Shown: piece by piece, positions 3,093-64,000 of the stretch
Numbering within the stretch: position 1 is the first letter of the stretch
Layout: each line of letters begins with the position of its first letter
Sequence record: PQ400055.1
DNA: 64,000 nt
Source of the DNA: a phage
Direction: 5' to 3' (one strand)
Translations under genes and position numbers: made by a program
The notes under the pieces: model-generated
Seen by the model: only the letters and a program-made list of their open reading frames with translations
Databases searched by the model: none
Told to the model about the DNA's origin: nothing

Positions 3093-5771
3093 TTAAATGT
3101 CAAACAGGTCAGTCAGAGAAGCAACTTTCTCATATTGCAGCTTTGCAGCCGTGGTAATGTTCTCCAGTGGTTTGACGAAAGTCTTATTAAACAACAAAGG
3201 CCAGTCTAACCACTTTAACACCTCTGATTCAATTTCTGGAGGAATACGAGTACCGGACAACCAACCAAAACAGATTTCTCCAAACGGATTTCGATCTTTC
3301 AGCGGTACAATCATAACCTTCTCGCCCTCACGAATTGGATCTAGTCCGAATTTTCGAGCATTACGATTATAACACAATACACTCTTAACCGCATACGGAC
3401 AACCCTTAATCGGATACCCGTTTGAATCGCTGTATTTCTGTAGGTTGTTTGCAGATGATACCGCAGCAACCTCAAGATAATCAAGTTTTCTAAATTCTTG
3501 CTCAAAAATACCGTAGTATTCCTGCAATGACTCTTCACCTTCCTGCAACATACGGCGAATACATTCTTTCAGTGATTTCTGACATGCTTTAGGGGTGGAG
3601 CTACGTTGCGTTTCCAAGCCCATGATTTTTAGCTTAGGTTCAGCAAAGCGCGTTCCTTCCATATCCCAAACATTAAGAGCATAACGCTTTTTGCCAGTCC
3701 AGAATCCACCGATACCCGCAGATTTCAACGGAGGACCAGCAATTGCCTCACGGTCCATAAACATCAAGTGCTCATAGTTGTTCATGTACTCGCATAACTC
3801 GCGATATCCCTTGTCGATAATAGGTTCCATTCGATGTTTACCGAAATTATCAAGGAAGTCAACAAGTTTTTCGGTATCGTCGAAACGGTCTTCCCCGCCA
3901 ACCTTATCAACAACATTGTTAACCAGCACATAAACGGAGTCAGTATCACAATAACGAACATATGCAAAATCGGTTGTTCCGCAAAGCTCGTTTAAGTATT
4001 CGTTAATCTTACGCTCAATCCACTGAATTGCAAGCTGACCAAACAAGGTGATCGCACTAGCGTTACGGAGATCATAAAAACGGAATTTAGGATTCCCCAA
4101 CGCACCATAAAGGGAGTTGATCAAAACTTTTCGAGAAAGCTGGTTTGTATTGCACAAGATCGACTCGTCTTTACATTCTTCCAGCAATTTCTCTAAGGCA
4201 TCTTTACTTAATTCAGAAAGCATCGATTTAAACGCTTCATCAAAGTCGTGACGTACTTCAACGCTATAGCTAATGGTTCCCCCATAAACATGATTTTCAT
4301 CGTGTAGAATCGCTTTACAGAGTTCAGCATTGCGATCACATGCCAACATCATGTTTTTGTACTGCTTACGCTGATCGAATACCTTTTTAATCTCAATCGG
4401 TACGATACCGTGAATATCTTTTCTATACATCCATCCGTTAGGAGAGCAAGAATACTCATCACTCGGACGTGGTGCAGTTTTATTGATATACTCGTGCATC
4501 GGTGCAGCATCAAAAGATCCGGCGATTGTTTCCGGCGAAATGTTAACCTGTCGAATAATAGATGGGTACAGACTTGTTAAGTCAAAGCTCATCATCCAAC
4601 GGTAAGCATTCGGCACAGGTTCTTTTACGAATGCGCCTGGATACGTCTGCTTAGGCTGTATCTTATTTTCCGGTACTACTTTACCCTCAGCTTTCAGAGA
4701 TCCGAAGATAATAGCATCCCATACTTTCATCGGGTTATAAACATGGTTAAATTTAATCTTTGCATAGAAACATAGACTATACACAAGATCGATAAATCCA
4801 CGCTTTTTATCAATCGCCAGCACACGATCAACGTCGCCGATGTTATAATCGATGTAAAGTTGATGGTTGTCATCACGCAATTTCTTTAACGGACCATCAT
4901 AATCAACCTTACCGATTCCTGTCTCATATTCAGCAACATAATCTAACGCATATGTTGGTTGAGTCGTAAAGCTAAATTTCTTGTACAGGTCAATATAATC
5001 AAGGCTTTCGATCCCCATGATCGTAAATGCTTCACGCTCGTTGCCAAAATCATCCTGTGAGATTCGGGATTTAATCTTACCGCACGGGCTTAGACGGTTA
5101 GCGGTTCTACTTCCGAACTTATTACTGATACGTTTAATGATATATGGAATATCGAATGTTTCTGTGTTCCAGCCAGTGAAACCAACGGGTCGGTTTTCCT
5201 CAAAGAATCGGATGTATTCTAACAGCAATTCATCTTCTGTGTCATAGACGTTATAAACAACGCGCTCTACAATATCAGGTCGAAGAATAGACTTGCTTGC
5301 TTCCCAGATTTCACCGTTTTTTCCCTTCAAATCAAATACAAAGAAACGATCATGTACTGAATCATAATGCGTAATTGCATCGATAGGATATTTCGCTTCT
5401 TCTGGTTTAGGAAATTCTGGGGCAGTGACCTCGATATCAACCCATGCTACACGGATTTTATTTCGGTCATATCGAATCTCTCCTTTATACGTATCAGACA
5501 GATAGGAGATGATAAAATCATCCATCCCTAGCGCCTCTTGCCCCATTTCTCCCATCTTTTTACGCCATTTGTTGGCCTCGTTCATAGAGGGGAATTTTTT
5601 AGCAATGCAAGGCTTGCCATAGATATCTTTATAATTCGTAACCATACCAGGCGCGGCATGATGAAATAAAGTTGGCGTATATTCAACGTAACGCTCTTGT
5701 TCTTGTCCAGCATCATCAATATAACGCTCGTAGATCTTATCACCTACTCGCTCACATGACAGAAAATACAT
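3093..5771 (-). CDS. 43: DNA polymerase gp43 (family B)
   Basis: Track ORF 3093..5801 trimmed to in-frame ATG (M11) with GGAG Shine-Dalgarno; exo motif VDIEV, pol motifs KILINSLYG and YCDTDSVYV; T4 gp43-like throughout. Confidence 0.93.
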   Translation of the reverse strand: MYFLSCERVGDKIYERYIDDAGQEQERYVEYTPTLFHHAAPGMVTNYKDIYGKPCIAKKFPSMNEANKWRKKMGEMGQEALGMDDFIISYLSDTYKGEIRYDRNKIRVAWVDIEVTAPEFPKPEEAKYPIDAITHYDSVHDRFFVFDLKGKNGEIWEASKSILRPDIVERVVYNVYDTEDELLLEYIRFFEENRPVGFTGWNTETFDIPYIIKRISNKFGSRTANRLSPCGKIKSRISQDDFGNEREAFTIMGIESLDYIDLYKKFSFTTQPTYALDYVAEYETGIGKVDYDGPLKKLRDDNHQLYIDYNIGDVDRVLAIDKKRGFIDLVYSLCFYAKIKFNHVYNPMKVWDAIIFGSLKAEGKVVPENKIQPKQTYPGAFVKEPVPNAYRWMMSFDLTSLYPSIIRQVNISPETIAGSFDAAPMHEYINKTAPRPSDEYSCSPNGWMYRKDIHGIVPIEIKKVFDQRKQYKNMMLACDRNAELCKAILHDENHVYGGTISYSVEVRHDFDEAFKSMLSELSKDALEKLLEECKDESILCNTNQLSRKVLINSLYGALGNPKFRFYDLRNASAITLFGQLAIQWIERKINEYLNELCGTTDFAYVRYCDTDSVYVLVNNVVDKVGGEDRFDDTEKLVDFLDNFGKHRMEPIIDKGYRELCEYMNNYEHLMFMDREAIAGPPLKSAGIGGFWTGKKRYALNVWDMEGTRFAEPKLKIMGLETQRSSTPKACQKSLKECIRRMLQEGEESLQEYYGIFEQEFRKLDYLEVAAVSSANNLQKYSDSNGYPIKGCPYAVKSVLCYNRNARKFGLDPIREGEKVMIVPLKDRNPFGEICFGWLSGTRIPPEIESEVLKWLDWPLLFNKTFVKPLENITTAAKLQYEKVASLTDLFDI

Positions 5772-5803
5772 AATATAAACTCCTTCACTTACGAAAGACA
5801 CTC

Positions 5804-7836: not shown

Positions 7837-8523
7837 TTAGTCGGTGTAGCTGGAGTCAAGGTCACACGCGATCATATAAGATACGGTTTCACTTGCCAGC
7901 CATACAGCCTTACGGCGAGTGAAGCTCAGTTTGTAATCGCCGAAGTCAGTAGCAACCAGTTTCATGTTATCTTTACGAATAAAGAAATGGAAGTCTGCGG
8001 TTCCGGTATATTCGCCCATATCAAGACAAAACATCTCATTAGGATTATTTTTGTCAATCTCTTCCCAACCTTTGATCATCAGACGACCATCAATCGGAAG
8101 AAATTCAAGGCGGTCCACTTTAAGCTGATTGCTCATTTTCATAAGCTGTTTCAGATCGTCGTTGCTCAGTTCGTAATCTACATCGCTTGCAGGTGGAGTA
8201 ACTCGGCCTTTCGGTGATACGATAGCAGCAGCACTAGCACCAGGATAATTAATTTTCAGACGATCATTAGACACACGAATGTTTCCGGTGCGGTCATCAA
8301 CCGTAATATCTGCTTCATCGCCTACCAGATTCAGAATACCCAGGAAAGAGTTAAGATCATAGATCCCAATTTCGTGTTCCAGTTCTTGATTCAGAGTCGC
8401 TTCACCATATACAACGTTTGTCATGTTTTTGGTGATTAGGACGTTTCCTTTTTTCAGGATGATACCTGGGTTAATAGCGGAAAAGTTTTTCAGGGTAGCA
8501 ATGGTTTCTTTAGTCAGTTTCAT
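7837..8523 (-). CDS. 45: sliding clamp gp45
   Basis: 228 aa from internal ATG; MKLTKETIATLKNF... resembles T4 gp45; synteny. Confidence 0.9.
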   Translation of the reverse strand: MKLTKETIATLKNFSAINPGIILKKGNVLITKNMTNVVYGEATLNQELEHEIGIYDLNSFLGILNLVGDEADITVDDRTGNIRVSNDRLKINYPGASAAAIVSPKGRVTPPASDVDYELSNDDLKQLMKMSNQLKVDRLEFLPIDGRLMIKGWEEIDKNNPNEMFCLDMGEYTGTADFHFFIRKDNMKLVATDFGDYKLSFTRRKAVWLASETVSYMIACDLDSSYTD

Positions 8524-8553
8524 CAAATCACCTTTATCATGTTAATCAATTAA

Positions 8554-21238: not shown

Positions 21239-21266
21239 ATTATACATTAGCTAATCATGTTGTCAA
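21239..21266 (-). promoter_or_regulatory. sigma70-type promoter (TTGACA-16-TATAAT)
   Basis: Exact -35 and -10 hexamers on the minus strand; leader GCTCACATCGAAAACAACGAGAGGA. Confidence 0.5.
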
Positions 21267-26705: not shown

Positions 26706-27518
26706 TCAATCTACGTTAGTTACATAAACTTCTTGCGTATCAGAAGACTTGCCACCTGAACGATCTAGGCAATAGGTCTTATTCAACAAGACGCAGTTTA
26801 AATCATTCCGCTTGATAAAGTCAAGAAGATGATCATTTGCCTTTCCCTTATGATGCGTGACATTACTTATACCAAACTGAAAACCACGCGCCATAATAGA
26901 TTCTACCCACTGATAGAATTTAATCTCTTCCTCGTCACTCCAGAACTTATTGTATTCCGCAGAAGTGATAAGGTACGGCGGGTCCAAATAAACGAAATCA
27001 CCTGGCAAGATCTCGATCTCGTCATAACGACCAGAAGTAAAACTGATTCGACCGTCTTTGTTTTCTTCCTTAAAATTCAGGACGCGCTCTACCGCGTTTT
27101 CGTTAAAAGTCCGTCGGCCAAAATTAGCATTAAATTCTCCCTTCCTGTTATGGCGGTTAATGTTGCTAAAACTGTGCTGAATCAACACAAACAGAGATAG
27201 AGGGTCTGGATTCTCGTTATACTTCTTACGGAATGTCATGTAAGCGTCTTTATCTTCGCGAGACAAACCATTTTCGGCAATAATACGCTTGATCGTAGAA
27301 ACCGGATCAGGACACTCATCAATGGCCTTGTAAGCGTCAATTAAGCGATGATCATAGTCATTAGCCAGTACATCACCTTCAACATACAGAGACACGCTCA
27401 AGCCACCACAAAAGGCATCAACAAAGCGGTTATAGTGCTTAGGGAAATATTTACTAACACCGGGCAATAACTTTTCCTTATTGCCCGTATAGGGAATTAA
27501 ACCTAATGCTTTCTTCAT
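26706..27518 (-). CDS. dam: Dam DNA N6-adenine methyltransferase
   Basis: 270 aa; PYTGNK, NRFVDAFCGGLSVSL, DPPYLITSAEYNKFWSDEEE almost identical to the T4 Dam motifs. Confidence 0.88.
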   Translation of the reverse strand: MKKALGLIPYTGNKEKLLPGVSKYFPKHYNRFVDAFCGGLSVSLYVEGDVLANDYDHRLIDAYKAIDECPDPVSTIKRIIAENGLSREDKDAYMTFRKKYNENPDPLSLFVLIQHSFSNINRHNRKGEFNANFGRRTFNENAVERVLNFKEENKDGRISFTSGRYDEIEILPGDFVYLDPPYLITSAEYNKFWSDEEEIKFYQWVESIMARGFQFGISNVTHHKGKANDHLLDFIKRNDLNCVLLNKTYCLDRSGGKSSDTQEVYVTNVD

Positions 27519-60900: not shown

Positions 60901-61002
60901 ACATTCTCTATGTTCCGTGAACTTGTAGATAAACGGTTGAAGGATAATATAGGGAATCCACGCGATCCGAAGAATCCGACACAGAGGAAAATTAATGGCT
61001 AA
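57916..61002 (+). CDS. 7: baseplate wedge initiator gp7
   Basis: 1028 aa ORF, synteny and size. Confidence 0.85.
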   Translation: MIKAPSVTSLTIEKLSANQAYITWDDVGENFFYFVELAETRTRDGEIIPVDELSWVNLGYTAEQNWFEDKNLFPEYYYKFRVAVAAEGFEQSKWVETEEFQTFKTNAYNFSMMREFNLANEFIKEKFTYDNREYVKFNTDLIQASLMKEDFVFSPEYANMTNISNYIVVDENFHEIQDHIEKVCTDINRTMLAEMNGVLYLFERFQPIVKVSNDKGQSWKAYKAFNDRVGNPVSRTCVYQSKTTTYVLGYDRIFYGRQASDTRWSADDVRFSDDTITFAKVGDENDLGFDVEVFGVFSRLTGDTTKYAEAMACSDDYLWVGAKDVIRRIRLKNTPVDTVQGSPTFGEKIFDPDVIRVTGNDKAVIQKMDVIDGKLLVFVTGEVKQRYQDPTKPENVVPSDDAGVYLIGSDGLSFQRVFGNTPQEREYIQHGFSNMSTNGDEVFISHYNHHFESILPDPETAEKYELGEAVKYSQEPTYLTDKKIHQTTFRASYDDLRIWELGPQAYYNEADYTWMRRNGVRVWITNDNRPLVVYPEVIYTQEVDTSGILDQNRVNREVYDKGTVTCYLNNVKFEGFKQYASGVMFHKNTGEIIGFYQFNYRVRDQVGVYWKPTNVAFVAELQNQVREVPWVPVHYDREQDPDLRPLLNKMTPDSFLLENENFRKFSEYYLQFLSDGSGTYYNKLKNLIKNKYPREKDAYEYLWSEMNKRNIYADKNKRDAVVRFFESRKSDFYSTKGVEASYKFLFKLLYNEDVEIEVESQAGLEYDIVVSSTNIDEDIVGRTIYTPTGRANVTYLEREYEGGRLRWRVTIHNLIGRFEEGQVIKSEKTAFEGMILVGVRGKELLSSSIDYINRSRSQYTMKIKSALPVSRYANDVMRFVHPVGFGFIGVTLLTMFINSGLSMKHTETIIQSLKNYKFDSGLPSVYPDRVADLDVDGNIKKDPLTGKALYLTSPLIGEEFPVPPEYDQENSELFHGLKASERRFAMSPLFDQSAVTFSMFRELVDKRLKDNIGNPRDPKNPTQRKING

Positions 61003-61990
61003 TGAAAATAGTGTGATCTATCGCTCAATCATTACTAGCAAATTCAGAACAGAAAAACTTCTGAACTTCTATAATTCTGTAGGCGATGGAGCAAATCAAA
61101 TTACAATTTATGGAACGTTTGGACGTTCGGAGCCGTGGTCAGAAAACGAAAAAGAGGTGGGCTTTGCCCCACCTTATCCGACCGATTCAACGGCTGGTGT
61201 TGTTGACATGTGGACCCATATGATGGGGGCGGTTAAGATTAACAAATCACTTCTTGATGCGGTTATCCCTCGTAAAGATTGGGGTGATACCGGACAGGAT
61301 AACCCGCGCACGTTCTTTATCAATGACATTGTTGTCGTAAACTCAGCACCATATAACCGTACAGATGTTGGTAGCGGCTGGATGGTTTACCGTGTAACCG
61401 ATGTTCCTGATCGCGGTTACTGCTCTATTTCAAGCATTGACGCTAAAGTAGAGTGTTTGAAGCTGGGCGGAAAGTGGACACCTACCCATGAATCAATTGC
61501 GCCACCTGTAGGAAAGGGCGATTCTATTGATATGGGTGATGGATATCGTTGGGAATATCTGTACACAATTCCACCTGATGCGGCGATCAACCGTTGCACC
61601 AATGAACATATTGTTGTACCGTTCCCCGATGAACTGCGACAAGATCCGGCGCGTTGGGGCTATGACAATGTGATCACCTGGTATAATGACTATAATCTGC
61701 TTTATCGGCTGAAAGTAGTAACTTTGCGTTTTCAGGCTTATATGGACTCTGCGCAATTCCCAACTACCGCGTTAGTGGGTAATACTGGTTTCCGTCAGTT
61801 AAGCATTATCCTTAACCCATTGGAAAAGAAAGCACGCCCTAGCGATCCAGACGTTAAAGCGGTTGAAGATAAGTACCGACCGCAAGACTTAGAGCCACAC
61901 TCAGGCGAAATGATCTACATGGAAAACCGACAACCTATCGTTCGGTCATTAGATCAAACAGAACTTGTTTCTGTATTGTTTGAGTTCTAA
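60995..61990 (+). CDS. 8: baseplate wedge subunit gp8
   Basis: 331 aa ORF, synteny and size. Confidence 0.8.
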   Translation: MANENSVIYRSIITSKFRTEKLLNFYNSVGDGANQITIYGTFGRSEPWSENEKEVGFAPPYPTDSTAGVVDMWTHMMGAVKINKSLLDAVIPRKDWGDTGQDNPRTFFINDIVVVNSAPYNRTDVGSGWMVYRVTDVPDRGYCSISSIDAKVECLKLGGKWTPTHESIAPPVGKGDSIDMGDGYRWEYLYTIPPDAAINRCTNEHIVVPFPDELRQDPARWGYDNVITWYNDYNLLYRLKVVTLRFQAYMDSAQFPTTALVGNTGFRQLSIILNPLEKKARPSDPDVKAVEDKYRPQDLEPHSGEMIYMENRQPIVRSLDQTELVSVLFEF

Positions 61991-62004
61991 GTGTATGATT
62001 TAAA

Positions 62005-62038
62005 AGCCAATTCGAGAGAGTTGGCTTTTTCTGTTTTT
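62005..62038 (+). terminator. rho-independent terminator after gene 8
   Basis: AGCCAA-ttcgagagag-TTGGCT hairpin then TTTTTCTGTTTTT. Confidence 0.6.
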
Positions 62039-62042
62039 GGTG

Positions 62043-62070
62043 TTGACAATCTTGTCTGGTAAGGTATAAT
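62043..62070 (+). promoter_or_regulatory. sigma70-type promoter (TTGACA-16-TATAAT) on the plus strand
   Basis: Exact hexamers; leader GCTCACATCTAAACAACGGAGGA resembles the minus-strand early leaders. Confidence 0.55.
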
Positions 62071-62099
62071 GCTCACATCTAAACAACGGAGGATAAATT

Positions 62100-62357
62100 A
62101 TGGCACGTCGTAAATTTACAGATAATTGTGAAGCAATTCAGGTATCCCCTTGCGGTTGGGATGTGATCGCGAACGGTGAAAAGATCGGAGAGATCATCGA
62201 TCATACTCATTCATCACTAGCCGATTACACCGATGAACTATGGGAGGGTATCAACTTCATGAATGACACTAAACGATTCAAGACTATCGACGAAGCTATC
62301 TATTTTGTGTATAATCCAACTTTCGGTATGTGGGGAACTAGAAAATGGCACGCGTAA
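62100..62357 (+). CDS. hypothetical protein (cassette gene 1)
   Basis: 85 aa; ATG with GGAGGA Shine-Dalgarno; first ORF after the promoter. Confidence 0.5.
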   Translation: MARRKFTDNCEAIQVSPCGWDVIANGEKIGEIIDHTHSSLADYTDELWEGINFMNDTKRFKTIDEAIYFVYNPTFGMWGTRKWHA

Positions 62358-62677
62358 ACATTAAACTACACTACACAATGGGTAAAGCTAAGTTCCCAAT
62401 GCAAAAGCATTACTATGGTCTACGTGCACAAGATCCAAAACTCTATGGTACTCATTGGTTTTGTAAACATGATAACCAATGGCACACATACGAAGAAATG
62501 CACGAGATGATGAAACAGGGTATTGAATTGAGTTATTCTAATTATGACCATCGTATAACTTGCATTCGAAAATTGAAACGATGGATTCGTAAGAATCCGC
62601 AATTTAAAAACTTTGTGTTCTTTATGTCTCATGTTTATTTGGGACATAGCGTTACCGTCACAGCAAAGGTTAAATAA
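62345..62677 (+). CDS. hypothetical His/Cys-rich protein (cassette gene 2)
   Basis: 110 aa; overlaps gene 1 by 13 nt; HWFCKHDNQWH...H..M. Confidence 0.5.
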   Translation: MARVNIKLHYTMGKAKFPMQKHYYGLRAQDPKLYGTHWFCKHDNQWHTYEEMHEMMKQGIELSYSNYDHRITCIRKLKRWIRKNPQFKNFVFFMSHVYLGHSVTVTAKVK

Positions 62678-63516
62678 TGGCACGACTTTCTAAACAAGAA
62701 CAAAAATTACACGATCGGGTGATGGAGTTGATTAATTCAGATCGCCCATTGACATATGAAGAAAAAGAATTTTGCTATAATAACTATCATGGCGATGGTC
62801 TAGGCGGTTCAGGTGCATTCTTTACCCCAGAAGGGCTTGCATGGGATTTTACCATCGATGCACATTGCACAGGAAAAGTATTAGATCTTTGTGCTGGGAT
62901 CGGTCTCTTATCTTTTTGTATGTTACATCGTTGTAAGCCAGAAAAGATCGTATGCGTCGAACTCAATCCAGAATTTGCGCGGATTGGCAAGCGACTATTA
63001 CCGGAGGCAGAATGGATCACCAGCGATGTATTCGAATTTGAGTCAAACGAAAAATTCGATGTGGTGATCAGCAATCCACCTTTCGGGAAAATCAATACAA
63101 CCAACACAAAGGATGTATTTGAGTACACTGGCGGCGAATTTGAATTTAAGGTTATGACATTAGGCCAGAAGTTTGCCGATGTTGGCTATTTTATTGTTCC
63201 TGTGGGTTCCGCTGGTTTTGCTTATTCCGGCAGACCTTATTATGACGGGACCATGAAGTCTAATAAATATCTAAAATGGAGCAAACAAACTGGTTTGGTG
63301 ACTTATGCCGGATGTGGGATCGATACATCAATCTATCGCGATGAATGGCACAGTACCAACGTTTTAACAGAAGTGGTTGAGGTTCGGTATTACGAGAAAG
63401 AAGCCGTAGAAGCGCCTAAATCACGCCCTAACGAACAAATAGAAGAAAGTAAGGAGATTACCTTACCGAAACAGGAAAGCGAGTCTGGGACGCTCTCAGA
63501 TTTGTTTGACATTTAA
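62677..63516 (+). CDS. N6-adenine DNA methyltransferase, gamma-class (HsdM/M.TaqI-like), orphan
   Basis: 279 aa; FFTPEGLAWDF, motif I VLDLCAGIGLLS, motif IV DVVISNPPFG; start overlaps the gene 2 stop (TAATG). Confidence 0.7.
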   Translation: MARLSKQEQKLHDRVMELINSDRPLTYEEKEFCYNNYHGDGLGGSGAFFTPEGLAWDFTIDAHCTGKVLDLCAGIGLLSFCMLHRCKPEKIVCVELNPEFARIGKRLLPEAEWITSDVFEFESNEKFDVVISNPPFGKINTTNTKDVFEYTGGEFEFKVMTLGQKFADVGYFIVPVGSAGFAYSGRPYYDGTMKSNKYLKWSKQTGLVTYAGCGIDTSIYRDEWHSTNVLTEVVEVRYYEKEAVEAPKSRPNEQIEESKEITLPKQESESGTLSDLFDI

Positions 63517-63520
63517 TTAT

Positions 63521-63547
63521 AAGCCGTCCTCGTGGGCGGCTTTTTTG
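63521..63547 (+). terminator. rho-independent terminator after the methyltransferase
   Basis: GCCGTCC-tcgt-GGGCGGC hairpin followed by TTTTTTGT. Confidence 0.6.
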
Positions 63548-63556
63548 TATGTATTT

Positions 63557-63564
63557 TATAAATA
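63557..63564 (+). promoter_or_regulatory. T4-type late promoter TATAAATA upstream of gene 9
   Basis: Exact TATAAATA about 28 nt upstream of the gene 9 ATG. Confidence 0.5.
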
Positions 63565-63591
63565 ATACATCATAACATGAGGAATTAAACA

Positions 63592-64000
63592 ATGGCACAA
63601 GTTCCAAAGAAAAGAATAGACACAGGTACTGTCGGCAATCCATCGACTGGCGATATCTTATATGATGGCGGTAATAAAATTAACGATAACTTTGATTCAA
63701 TATATGACGCATTTGCTGATCAGCGGTTTAAAGACGTAGACCACGGCGTGGGAAGAATGGTTATTCATGCAACCGGATACTATCAGAAGCATCCACGTCA
63801 AAGCTACGCTGGTTCTGCTGTTGAGATTGGGAGTCTACACGATATCGATACAACTCAAGGCGCACTTATTGCTATTCTACCTAAAGCAAAGGTCGGTGAG
63901 GGTGTTGTATTCATAAATAGTAACGGTAGCCTTTCAACGACGACACCGCTCAATATTCGAACTCAAGCAGGTGATTCTATTAGCGGTTATTCCGGTGATG
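63592..64000 (+). CDS. 9: baseplate wedge tail fibre connector gp9 (5' part; continues beyond window)
   Basis: Open frame from ATG near 63592 to the window end; MAQVPKKRIDTGTVGNPSTGDILYDGGNKIN... closely matches the T4 gp9 N-terminus. Confidence 0.85.
   Translation, partial: MAQVPKKRIDTGTVGNPSTGDILYDGGNKINDNFDSIYDAFADQRFKDVDHGVGRMVIHATGYYQKHPRQSYAGSAVEIGSLHDIDTTQGALIAILPKAKVGEGVVFINSNGSLSTTTPLNIRTQAGDSISGYSGD

Follow-up and report, generated by a model that had tools for sequence, protein, structure and literature searches.

A methyltransferase with a gp43-like, putatively clamp-binding tail between genes 8 and 9 of Krischvirus phages

The gene 8-9 junction

This report concerns a three-gene cassette in the phage sequence PQ400055.1, of which a stretch of 64,000 nucleotides (nt) was analysed (the window, numbered from its first letter) and which Megablast places in the genus Krischvirus (RB49, phi1, JSE, ECD7 and others). 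The cassette lies between the baseplate genes 8 and 9. Its third open reading frame (ORF3) encodes a predicted adenine methyltransferase whose last residues are nearly those of the phage's own DNA polymerase, a resemblance that suggests recruitment to the sliding clamp.

On the plus strand, the upstream late gene is gene 8, which encodes a baseplate wedge subunit (60995-61990; Pfam Phage-Gp8, E 1.4e-143; PHROG 977). It is followed by a stem-loop terminator, in which a scan found a 12-pair stem (hairpin 62002-62029, with its T-run to 62039), and by a sigma-70 early promoter, TTGACA-16 nt-TATAAT, that matches the consensus at 12 of 12 positions (62043-62070); by my estimate, about 0.02 such perfect promoters would be expected by chance in 128 kb, counting both strands. 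The Shine-Dalgarno sequence GGAGG (62088-62092) precedes three reading frames: ORF1 (62100-62357, 85 amino acids (aa)), ORF2 (62345-62677, 110 aa), which overlaps ORF1 by 13 nt, and ORF3 (62677-63516, 279 aa), which overlaps ORF2 by a single nucleotide (TAATG). Beyond ORF3 come a second terminator with a 9-pair GC-rich stem and a T-run (63521-63548) and the motif TATAAATA (63557-63564), read from the sequence as a T4-type late promoter for gene 9 and present in the same layout in a metagenomic phage, L019. Gene 9 itself, for the baseplate wedge tail-fibre connector, starts with the ATG at 63592 and runs off the end of the window at 64000 (Pfam T4_gp9_10_N, E 1e-35). In T4, 63 bp separate genes 8 and 9. 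An earlier reading of this DNA, referred to here as the original prediction, had described the same succession of terminator, sigma-70 promoter, three coupled reading frames, second terminator and late promoter, had noted that genes 8 and 9 are neighbours in T4, and had seen in the cassette a self-contained early-type transcription unit, here placed inside the late baseplate operon. All of this was borne out, each feature being found at or near the place assigned to it.

The regulatory head of the cassette is a PeSL (promoter-early stem-loop), an element previously described for RB49 and phi1 and shown to act as promoter and as terminator (Arbiol et al., 2010; PMC2839356). A promoter scan found about 30 near-consensus sigma-70 promoters in the window, nearly all on the minus (early) strand, and the promoter and leader at the gene 8-9 junction align with eight of the minus-strand elements, the best alignments being with the four that have the first base of the -35 box at 21266, 31887, 34306 and 47254. 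The resemblance to minus-strand early leaders that the original prediction had remarked upon is thus real. What the gene 8-9 element and the minus-strand PeSLs have in common is a hairpin, a T-run, GGTGTTGACAA, TATAATGCnCACATC and a GGAG site. The first terminator, for which G37-3 has a terminator annotation as well, can be aligned with the minus-strand PeSL stem-loops, and the promoter is preceded by TTTTTCTGTTTTTGGTG, in keeping with the AT/T-rich upstream region by which PeSLs are recognised. A few PeSLs are known from inside the virion module, where they stand beside genes of unknown function (PMC2839356).

The cassette is a fixed trait of the genus. Megablast returned 59 phage records matching the 1.75-kb region at 90-99% identity, 58 of them over at least 80% of the query, and in all 59 of these Krischvirus-group records the cassette occupies the same position. 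It is also already annotated: GenBank labels ORF3 variously as 'DNA methyltransferase', 'putative methyltransferase' or 'release factor glutamine methyltransferase' and leaves ORF1 and ORF2 as hypothetical proteins, and in phi1 the three genes are ORF140, ORF142 and ORF143, respectively. It is therefore no recent insertion in this genome, and the terms 'inserted' and 'mobile', which the original prediction had applied to it, do not hold in that sense. The idea of a mobile module is further weakened by more divergent metagenomic relatives that carry the methyltransferase at the same junction. Two of them, L019 and L020, whose methyltransferase is 64% identical, show the order gp8-PeSL-methyltransferase-gp9 with nothing else between, and a third, L021, has an unrelated 154-aa ORF between the PeSL and the methyltransferase; in these relatives, both terminators and both promoters have the layout seen here. 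In RB43 and KP15 a homologous methyltransferase (~48% identity) lies between genes 41 and 61.1. One record departs from the common picture at ORF1: in the original RB49 entry (AY343333.1, ~73902-74145) ORF1 matches in two pieces, in a region annotated as three hypothetical proteins, which may reflect a frameshift or a sequencing error in the record.

The methyltransferase and its C-terminal tail

ORF3 consists of a catalytic domain (aa 1-238, 62677-63390), a disordered acidic linker (aa 239-272, 63391-63492) and the terminal peptide LSDLFDI with its stop codon (63493-63516), a putative binding site for the sliding clamp gp45. The catalytic domain contains FFTP (aa 48-51, 62818-62829), the motif I sequence LDLCAGIG (aa 69-76, 62881-62904) and NPPF (aa 133-136, 63073-63084), and among the 33-34 homologues compared FFTP, the glycine loop of motif I and NPPF are invariant. 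In Pfam, the match to Eco57I reaches 27.5 bits, above the cut-off of 25.3, and that to MTS is also above its cut-off, with N6_Mtase at 17.2 bits, below its cut-off of 20.4. The best profile match overall is MAD2 of the MADS system (PADLOC mad2, 1.4e-16), followed by models of Type II and orphan DNA methyltransferases. An AlphaFold model with a predicted local distance difference test score (pLDDT) of 86 superposes best on lmo1582, METTL5/PH1948, Type I HsdM, MmeI, M.BseCI, M.TaqI and Erm/KsgA. From motifs, profiles and model, ORF3 is a predicted adenine-N6-type amino-methyltransferase; its fold, taken alone, is compatible with either DNA or rRNA as the substrate.

The original prediction had placed the protein among the M.TaqI/HsdM-like N6-adenine-type methyltransferases, in agreement with these motifs and with the Pfam and PADLOC matches, and was also right that it comes in addition to the phage's Dam. 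The latter is a D12-class adenine methyltransferase with a DPPY motif, encoded on the minus strand (26706-27518; Pfam PF02086, E 3.6e-30) and named "dam" in the phi1 annotation. Two other identities were considered for ORF3 and rejected. It is not a D12-class Dam, having no match to PF02086, and the PrmC/HemK glutamine methyltransferase of the annotations in ECD7, kvi and others is contradicted by an NCBIfam equivalog score of 38.6 bits against a cut-off of 199; in the structural ranking of the model, PrmC comes only 52nd.

Compared with chromosomal homologues of ~238 aa, the phage copies of the enzyme carry ~40 extra C-terminal residues. Most of these form the linker, which has a pLDDT of 52-62 and an isoelectric point (pI) of 4.3 and diverges between relatives. 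The methyltransferase ends in ...ESGTLSDLFDI and the gp43 of the same phage in ...KVASLTDLFDI, so that their last seven residues differ at one position; the homologous end of T4 gp43 reads ...EKASLDFLFG. The original prediction had not noticed this tail, which of all the features of the cassette says most about a mechanism. Gene 43, the DNA polymerase gene, lies on the minus strand (3093-5801; Pfam DNA_pol_B), and its last seven codons (3096-3116), encoding LTDLFDI, were taken as the reference clamp-binding tail. The C-termini of gp43, gp55 and gp33 are known to bind gp45, being hydrophobic-acidic, freely interchangeable and carried on divergent flexible linkers (PMC2988020). From this resemblance I infer that LSDLFDI docks the methyltransferase on gp45, the presumed partner being the clamp encoded by gene 45 on the minus strand (7837-8526; Pfam gp45-slide_C, 3.5e-14, and DNA_PPF). 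When a loose C-terminal pattern was run over the 292 non-overlapping ORFs of one Krischvirus genome, it returned only gp43, gp55, the methyltransferase and one likely spurious ORF; gp33 ends in NTLDI. Among relatives of the enzyme, one that is 68% identical has a diverged linker yet keeps the end TLTDLFDI, and more distant ones from the 8-9 junction end in SLSMFDI (P0004) and LDFVDFSEI (L019).

At gene 43, the clamp-binding tail and an early promoter use the same bases (3093-3116, minus strand). Within the last codons of the gene (cTG TTT GAC ATT TAA) lies the TTGACA that the next gene's perfect promoter, TTGACA-16-TATAAT, has as its -35 box. The 3' end of the methyltransferase gene (63500-63516) has the identical 14 nt and no -10 box.

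The wider family comprises 1,725 homologues at E < 1e-5, carried by T4-type and other phages, Pseudomonas megaplasmids, alpha- and beta-proteobacterial and Streptomyces plasmids, and enterobacterial chromosomes. For the bacterial beta clamp, the binding motif has the consensus QL(S/D)LF at the C-terminus (PMC9690074), and it is a motif of this type that ends the homologues on replicons needing the host clamp, namely plasmids and one non-T4 phage. Thus the Rhizobium phage TM3_3_14B has SPQLSLFGDAA, the Pseudomonas megaplasmids FAQLSLFDAA, Paraburkholderia pI SQLDLFAMAA, Rhizobium p8 QQLALF, an Agrobacterium plasmid EQLAFL, Labrenzia pBCL1 EQLALL, the metagenomic sequence P0117 QQLDLFGEAA and a Streptomyces plasmid DGFLF, each behind a low-complexity linker. 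Tails are absent from 104 of the 120 closest homologues, which are mostly chromosomal. In a rough neighbour-joining tree of the catalytic domains, the Krischvirus clade stands beside tail-less enterobacterial copies and is separate both from the RB43/KP15 clade, whose tails read LFTF[R/T]IE, and from the QLxLF clades. The occurrence of the tail types in separate clades suggests that tails were acquired independently.

I would give about even chances to the general proposition that this family of orphan adenine methyltransferases has repeatedly acquired clamp-binding tails matched to the clamp of the replicon that carries them, which would be the first instance of clamp-coupled DNA methylation among prokaryotes or viruses. 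The literature searched yielded no bacterial or phage methyltransferase that binds a clamp, nor any work on the methyltransferase of the cassette, which is not described in studies of Krischvirus DNA modifications (PMC13390438) and of Tevenvirinae (PMC8056088).

Several members of the family are worth recording for their surroundings. No partner gene of the methyltransferase is conserved across the genomic contexts compared. The closest non-phage homologues, tail-less and 53-61% identical, are on the Citrobacter freundii chromosome (L005-L008, 8001-8717), with the protein found on 887 contigs; there the gene occupies the edge of an island that also holds an HNH endonuclease, insertion sequence elements and numerous small unknown ORFs. 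Another tail-less homologue, in the 60-kb non-T4 Vibrio phage 13VV501A (L011, 601-1329), lies on the opposite strand between tail-completion and neck genes and is a second case of a methyltransferase gene lodged within a structural module. The homologue of Dickeya phage JA11 (L017, 601-1770) is 389 aa long and has, instead of a clamp-type tail, an extra C-terminal domain of ~150 aa, which holds VLDPYMLRGYTG, a sequence resembling a degenerate S-adenosylmethionine-binding loop of beta-class methyltransferases. In Rhizobium phage RHph_TM3_3_14B (L012, 1-1440), the QLSLF-tailed homologue overlaps by one base an upstream gene annotated as a modification DNA methylase, giving two tandem methyltransferases. 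A restriction endonuclease beside the Agrobacterium plasmid homologue was judged uninformative.

Proposed clamp recruitment and its alternatives

What would such an enzyme do? The reading that I favour, and to which I would give somewhat better than even odds, is that ORF3 is a clamp-recruited, replication-coupled DNA methyltransferase that protects phage DNA from restriction in addition to Dam. The stem-loop would keep transcription of the late baseplate operon from running on into the cassette, the consensus sigma-70 promoter of the PeSL would provide the methyltransferase early, before replication starts, and the second terminator would insulate gene 9, itself served by its own late promoter. 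The tail would then dock the enzyme on gp45 loaded at replication forks, where nascent phage DNA would be methylated as it is made. Methylation would keep pace with replication and would close the restriction-sensitive window of new DNA in a fast-replicating phage whose cytosines are possibly canonical, as in the Krischvirus TB34. A plasmid during its establishment would be served in the same way by a beta-clamp tail. An anti-restriction role of the predicted methyltransferase is plausible. High-performance liquid chromatography-mass spectrometry (HPLC-MS) of TB34 reportedly gave canonical cytosines and no detectable modified nucleosides (PMC13390438), and such phages are thus without the cytosine modification that shields T4 DNA.

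A number of observations weigh against this reading. TB34 (OX001802.1) carries the cassette at 98.8% identity, and the HPLC-MS result argues against dense or non-specific adenine methylation; sparse, site-specific N6-methyladenine (m6A) is compatible with it. No target-recognition domain is recognisable in ORF3, whose ~100 aa after NPPF complete the Rossmann fold, and the catalytic domain is acidic (pI 5.2). The rRNA m6A enzymes METTL5, PH1948 and Erm/KsgA fit its fold as strongly as DNA enzymes do. In RB43 and KP15, the tail of the methyltransferase (LFTFTIE) and those of gp43 (LNTLFGDDW, LNDLFGDW) match only in a DLF/NLF core. Finally, the 14 nt with which the methyltransferase gene and gene 43 both end, TGTTTGACATTTAA, contain TTGACA.

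Two further points concern the modification data themselves. The modified phages in that study were reported with cytosine derivatives only (PMC13390438). SAP (OZ034687.1) and TB34, both of which carry the cassette, are 99.96% identical Krischvirus isolates; glucosyl-hydroxymethyl-type bases were reported for SAP and none for TB34, with no known pathway genes, a difference that the authors leave unexplained (PMC13390438).

The identity of the last 14 nt makes it possible that the Krischvirus tail arose by recombination. On this account, ORF3 would be a freely diffusing orphan DNA adenine methyltransferase, and its gp43-like tail a by-product of recombination at PeSL/promoter sequence with no function at the clamp. 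The account draws on the role of these nucleotides at gp43, where they supply the -35 box to a perfect promoter, on the PeSLs to either side of gene 43 and their part in recombination (PMC2839356), and on the many homologues that work without a tail. However, a hydrophobic-acidic end is kept with different DNA and no TTGACA in relatives (LDFVDFSEI in L019, SLSMFDI in P0004), the motif is conserved while the linker diverges, and independent clades have the bacterial beta-clamp motif instead. That the motif persists in relatives with other codons argues that it is nevertheless selected, and I consider a functionless tail unlikely.

Still less probable, to my mind, is that ORF3 serves host takeover and not DNA protection, either as an RNA methyltransferase (rRNA or tRNA m6A; METTL5-, Erm- or TrmN6-like) or as a protein glutamine methyltransferase of the PrmC type. 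The equal fit of the rRNA enzymes to the fold speaks for the first of these; the profile ranking, in which MAD2 is followed by DNA methyltransferase models, points the other way, and the PrmC variant has against it the equivalog score and structural rank given above.

The original prediction had offered a different model, in which the three proteins form one functional unit and ORF1 and ORF2 supply target recognition or act jointly with the methyltransferase in an anti-restriction module. It is true that a single promoter precedes the three genes, that their translation is coupled and that 59 records have all three. The relatives of each, however, go separate ways. ORF1, an acidic ORFan (phrog_16603), occurs outside Krischvirus in only three Vequintavirus records, at ~70% identity. 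ORF2, also an ORFan (phrog_12630), is basic (pI 9.9) with conserved Cys/His residues and is found in ~30 rV5-like (Vequintavirus) records at 57-59% identity; in one rV5-like phage, FV3, the homologues of both are adjacent, with no methyltransferase beside them. Neither has a match in Pfam, NCBIfam or PADLOC, except for a sub-threshold WWE hit at E 0.06. Homologue searches gave five clusters for ORF2 and one for ORF1, an exhaustive HMMER profile search with ORF2 gave four representatives, and beyond Krischvirus and Vequintavirus the two proteins appear to be essentially without relatives. The AF2 model of ORF2 is poor (pLDDT 61).

For the methyltransferase, conversely, the neighbours vary: at the same junction it stands alone (L019, L020) or behind the unrelated 154-aa ORF (L021), and the genes upstream of it in RB43 and KP15 are unrelated to ORF1 and ORF2, BLASTP finding no similarity between these and the RB43 genes. 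Within Krischvirus itself, two alleles of ORF2 occur beside a nearly invariant methyltransferase. ORF1 and ORF2 were therefore rejected as specificity factors, since the enzyme occurs without them and they without it, and the single-unit model has very little left to recommend it. Judged by sequence comparison, the cassette is composite: the methyltransferase and the PeSL form a conserved core, and ORF1 and ORF2 are exchangeable passengers on the same promoter.

The ORF2 alleles are of interest in their own right. Thirty-nine records have an ORF2 of at least 95% identity and 20, including RB49 NC_005066, one of ~72%, the divergence being concentrated in aa 13-62 between nearly identical flanking genes. 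The second allele is nearer to the copy in FV3 (72% versus 59%), which suggests exchange between phage families. A further peculiarity is that ORF1, ORF2 and ORF3 all begin with ATGGCACG (MAR), at 62100, 62345 and 62677, a start found in four of the 119 coding-strand ORFs of the window, three of those four in the cassette. The FV3 homologues of ORF1 and ORF2 start with MSLRK and MAHVN, and the triple MAR is thus a local oddity and no family trait; it could be microhomology from the insertion of passenger genes or the outcome of selection on start context.

That the tail binds the clamp mainly for regulation, tuning replication (gp43) against late transcription (gp55, gp33) with methylation secondary, is the least credible alternative, for although gp45 has few ligand sites, common to gp43, gp55 and gp33 (PMC2988020), and the cassette is placed among late genes, the family keeps its catalytic motifs without variation and, on plasmids, homologues that end in a beta-clamp motif have no late transcription on which such regulation could act.

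Relation to known systems

The cassette, its PeSL head and the label 'DNA methyltransferase' were already present in databases or the literature. What is new, and in no paper searched, is that the cassette is composite and, more importantly, that clamp-matched tails occur in different branches of the family. If clamp docking proves true, it would account for protective methylation keeping step with very fast replication, and the 'tool-belt' of phage and bacterial clamps would gain a new class of ligand. Methylation would be paced with, or restricted to, the element's own newly replicated DNA, and the C-terminal clamp motif would be a simple sequence signature for finding similar plasmid and phage enzymes. 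The matter bears on host range, phi1 of the same genus having been isolated for phage therapy (PMC2839356).

Like the PeSLs of Arbiol et al., the gene 8-9 element combines a stem-loop terminator and a consensus sigma-70 promoter within ~100 bp directly 5' of ORFans, here ORF1, and it can be aligned with other PeSLs of the same genome. It differs from them in three respects. ORF140, ORF142 and ORF143 are absent from the text of that paper; the downstream boundary is a plain terminator with the TATAAATA late promoter, unlike the PeSL-flanked cassettes, and has no second PeSL or sigma-70 promoter; and the locus is fixed across the genus and does not vary between phi1 and RB49. Given the lack of a second PeSL downstream, the mini-circle excision proposed in PMC2839356 is not directly supported for the gene 8-9 locus.

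As an enzyme, ORF3 has the FxTP, motif I and NPPF of the gamma-type N6-adenine methyltransferases (M.TaqI, HsdM, Eco57I/MmeI, MAD2), but in a domain of only ~240 aa and without a recognisable target-recognition domain, S subunit or nuclease partner. With T4 Dam and other phage orphan methyltransferases used against restriction, it shares being a phage-encoded orphan adenine methyltransferase, predicted to be expressed before or during replication; its class is different, Dam being a D12 enzyme with DPPY and no clamp-binding tail. Its tail is like the T4 gp43, gp55 and gp33 epitopes in standing at the extreme C-terminus, hydrophobic and acidic, behind a variable flexible linker. The known gp45 ligands are replication and transcription proteins, however, and no methyltransferase is listed among them in PMC2988020 or PMC9690074.

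The nearest functional parallel is eukaryotic. DNMT1 with PCNA is the sole pairing of a methyltransferase and a clamp in a review of clamps (PMC9690074). DNMT1 is an unrelated C5-cytosine enzyme, large and multidomain, which uses a PIP box and has its role in epigenetic inheritance, whereas ORF3 is an adenine-N6-type domain of ~240 aa with a C-terminal phage/bacterial clamp motif, whose binding is predicted from sequence. What the two would have in common is the proposed principle: a short clamp-binding peptide on a DNA methyltransferase that couples methylation to newly replicated DNA.

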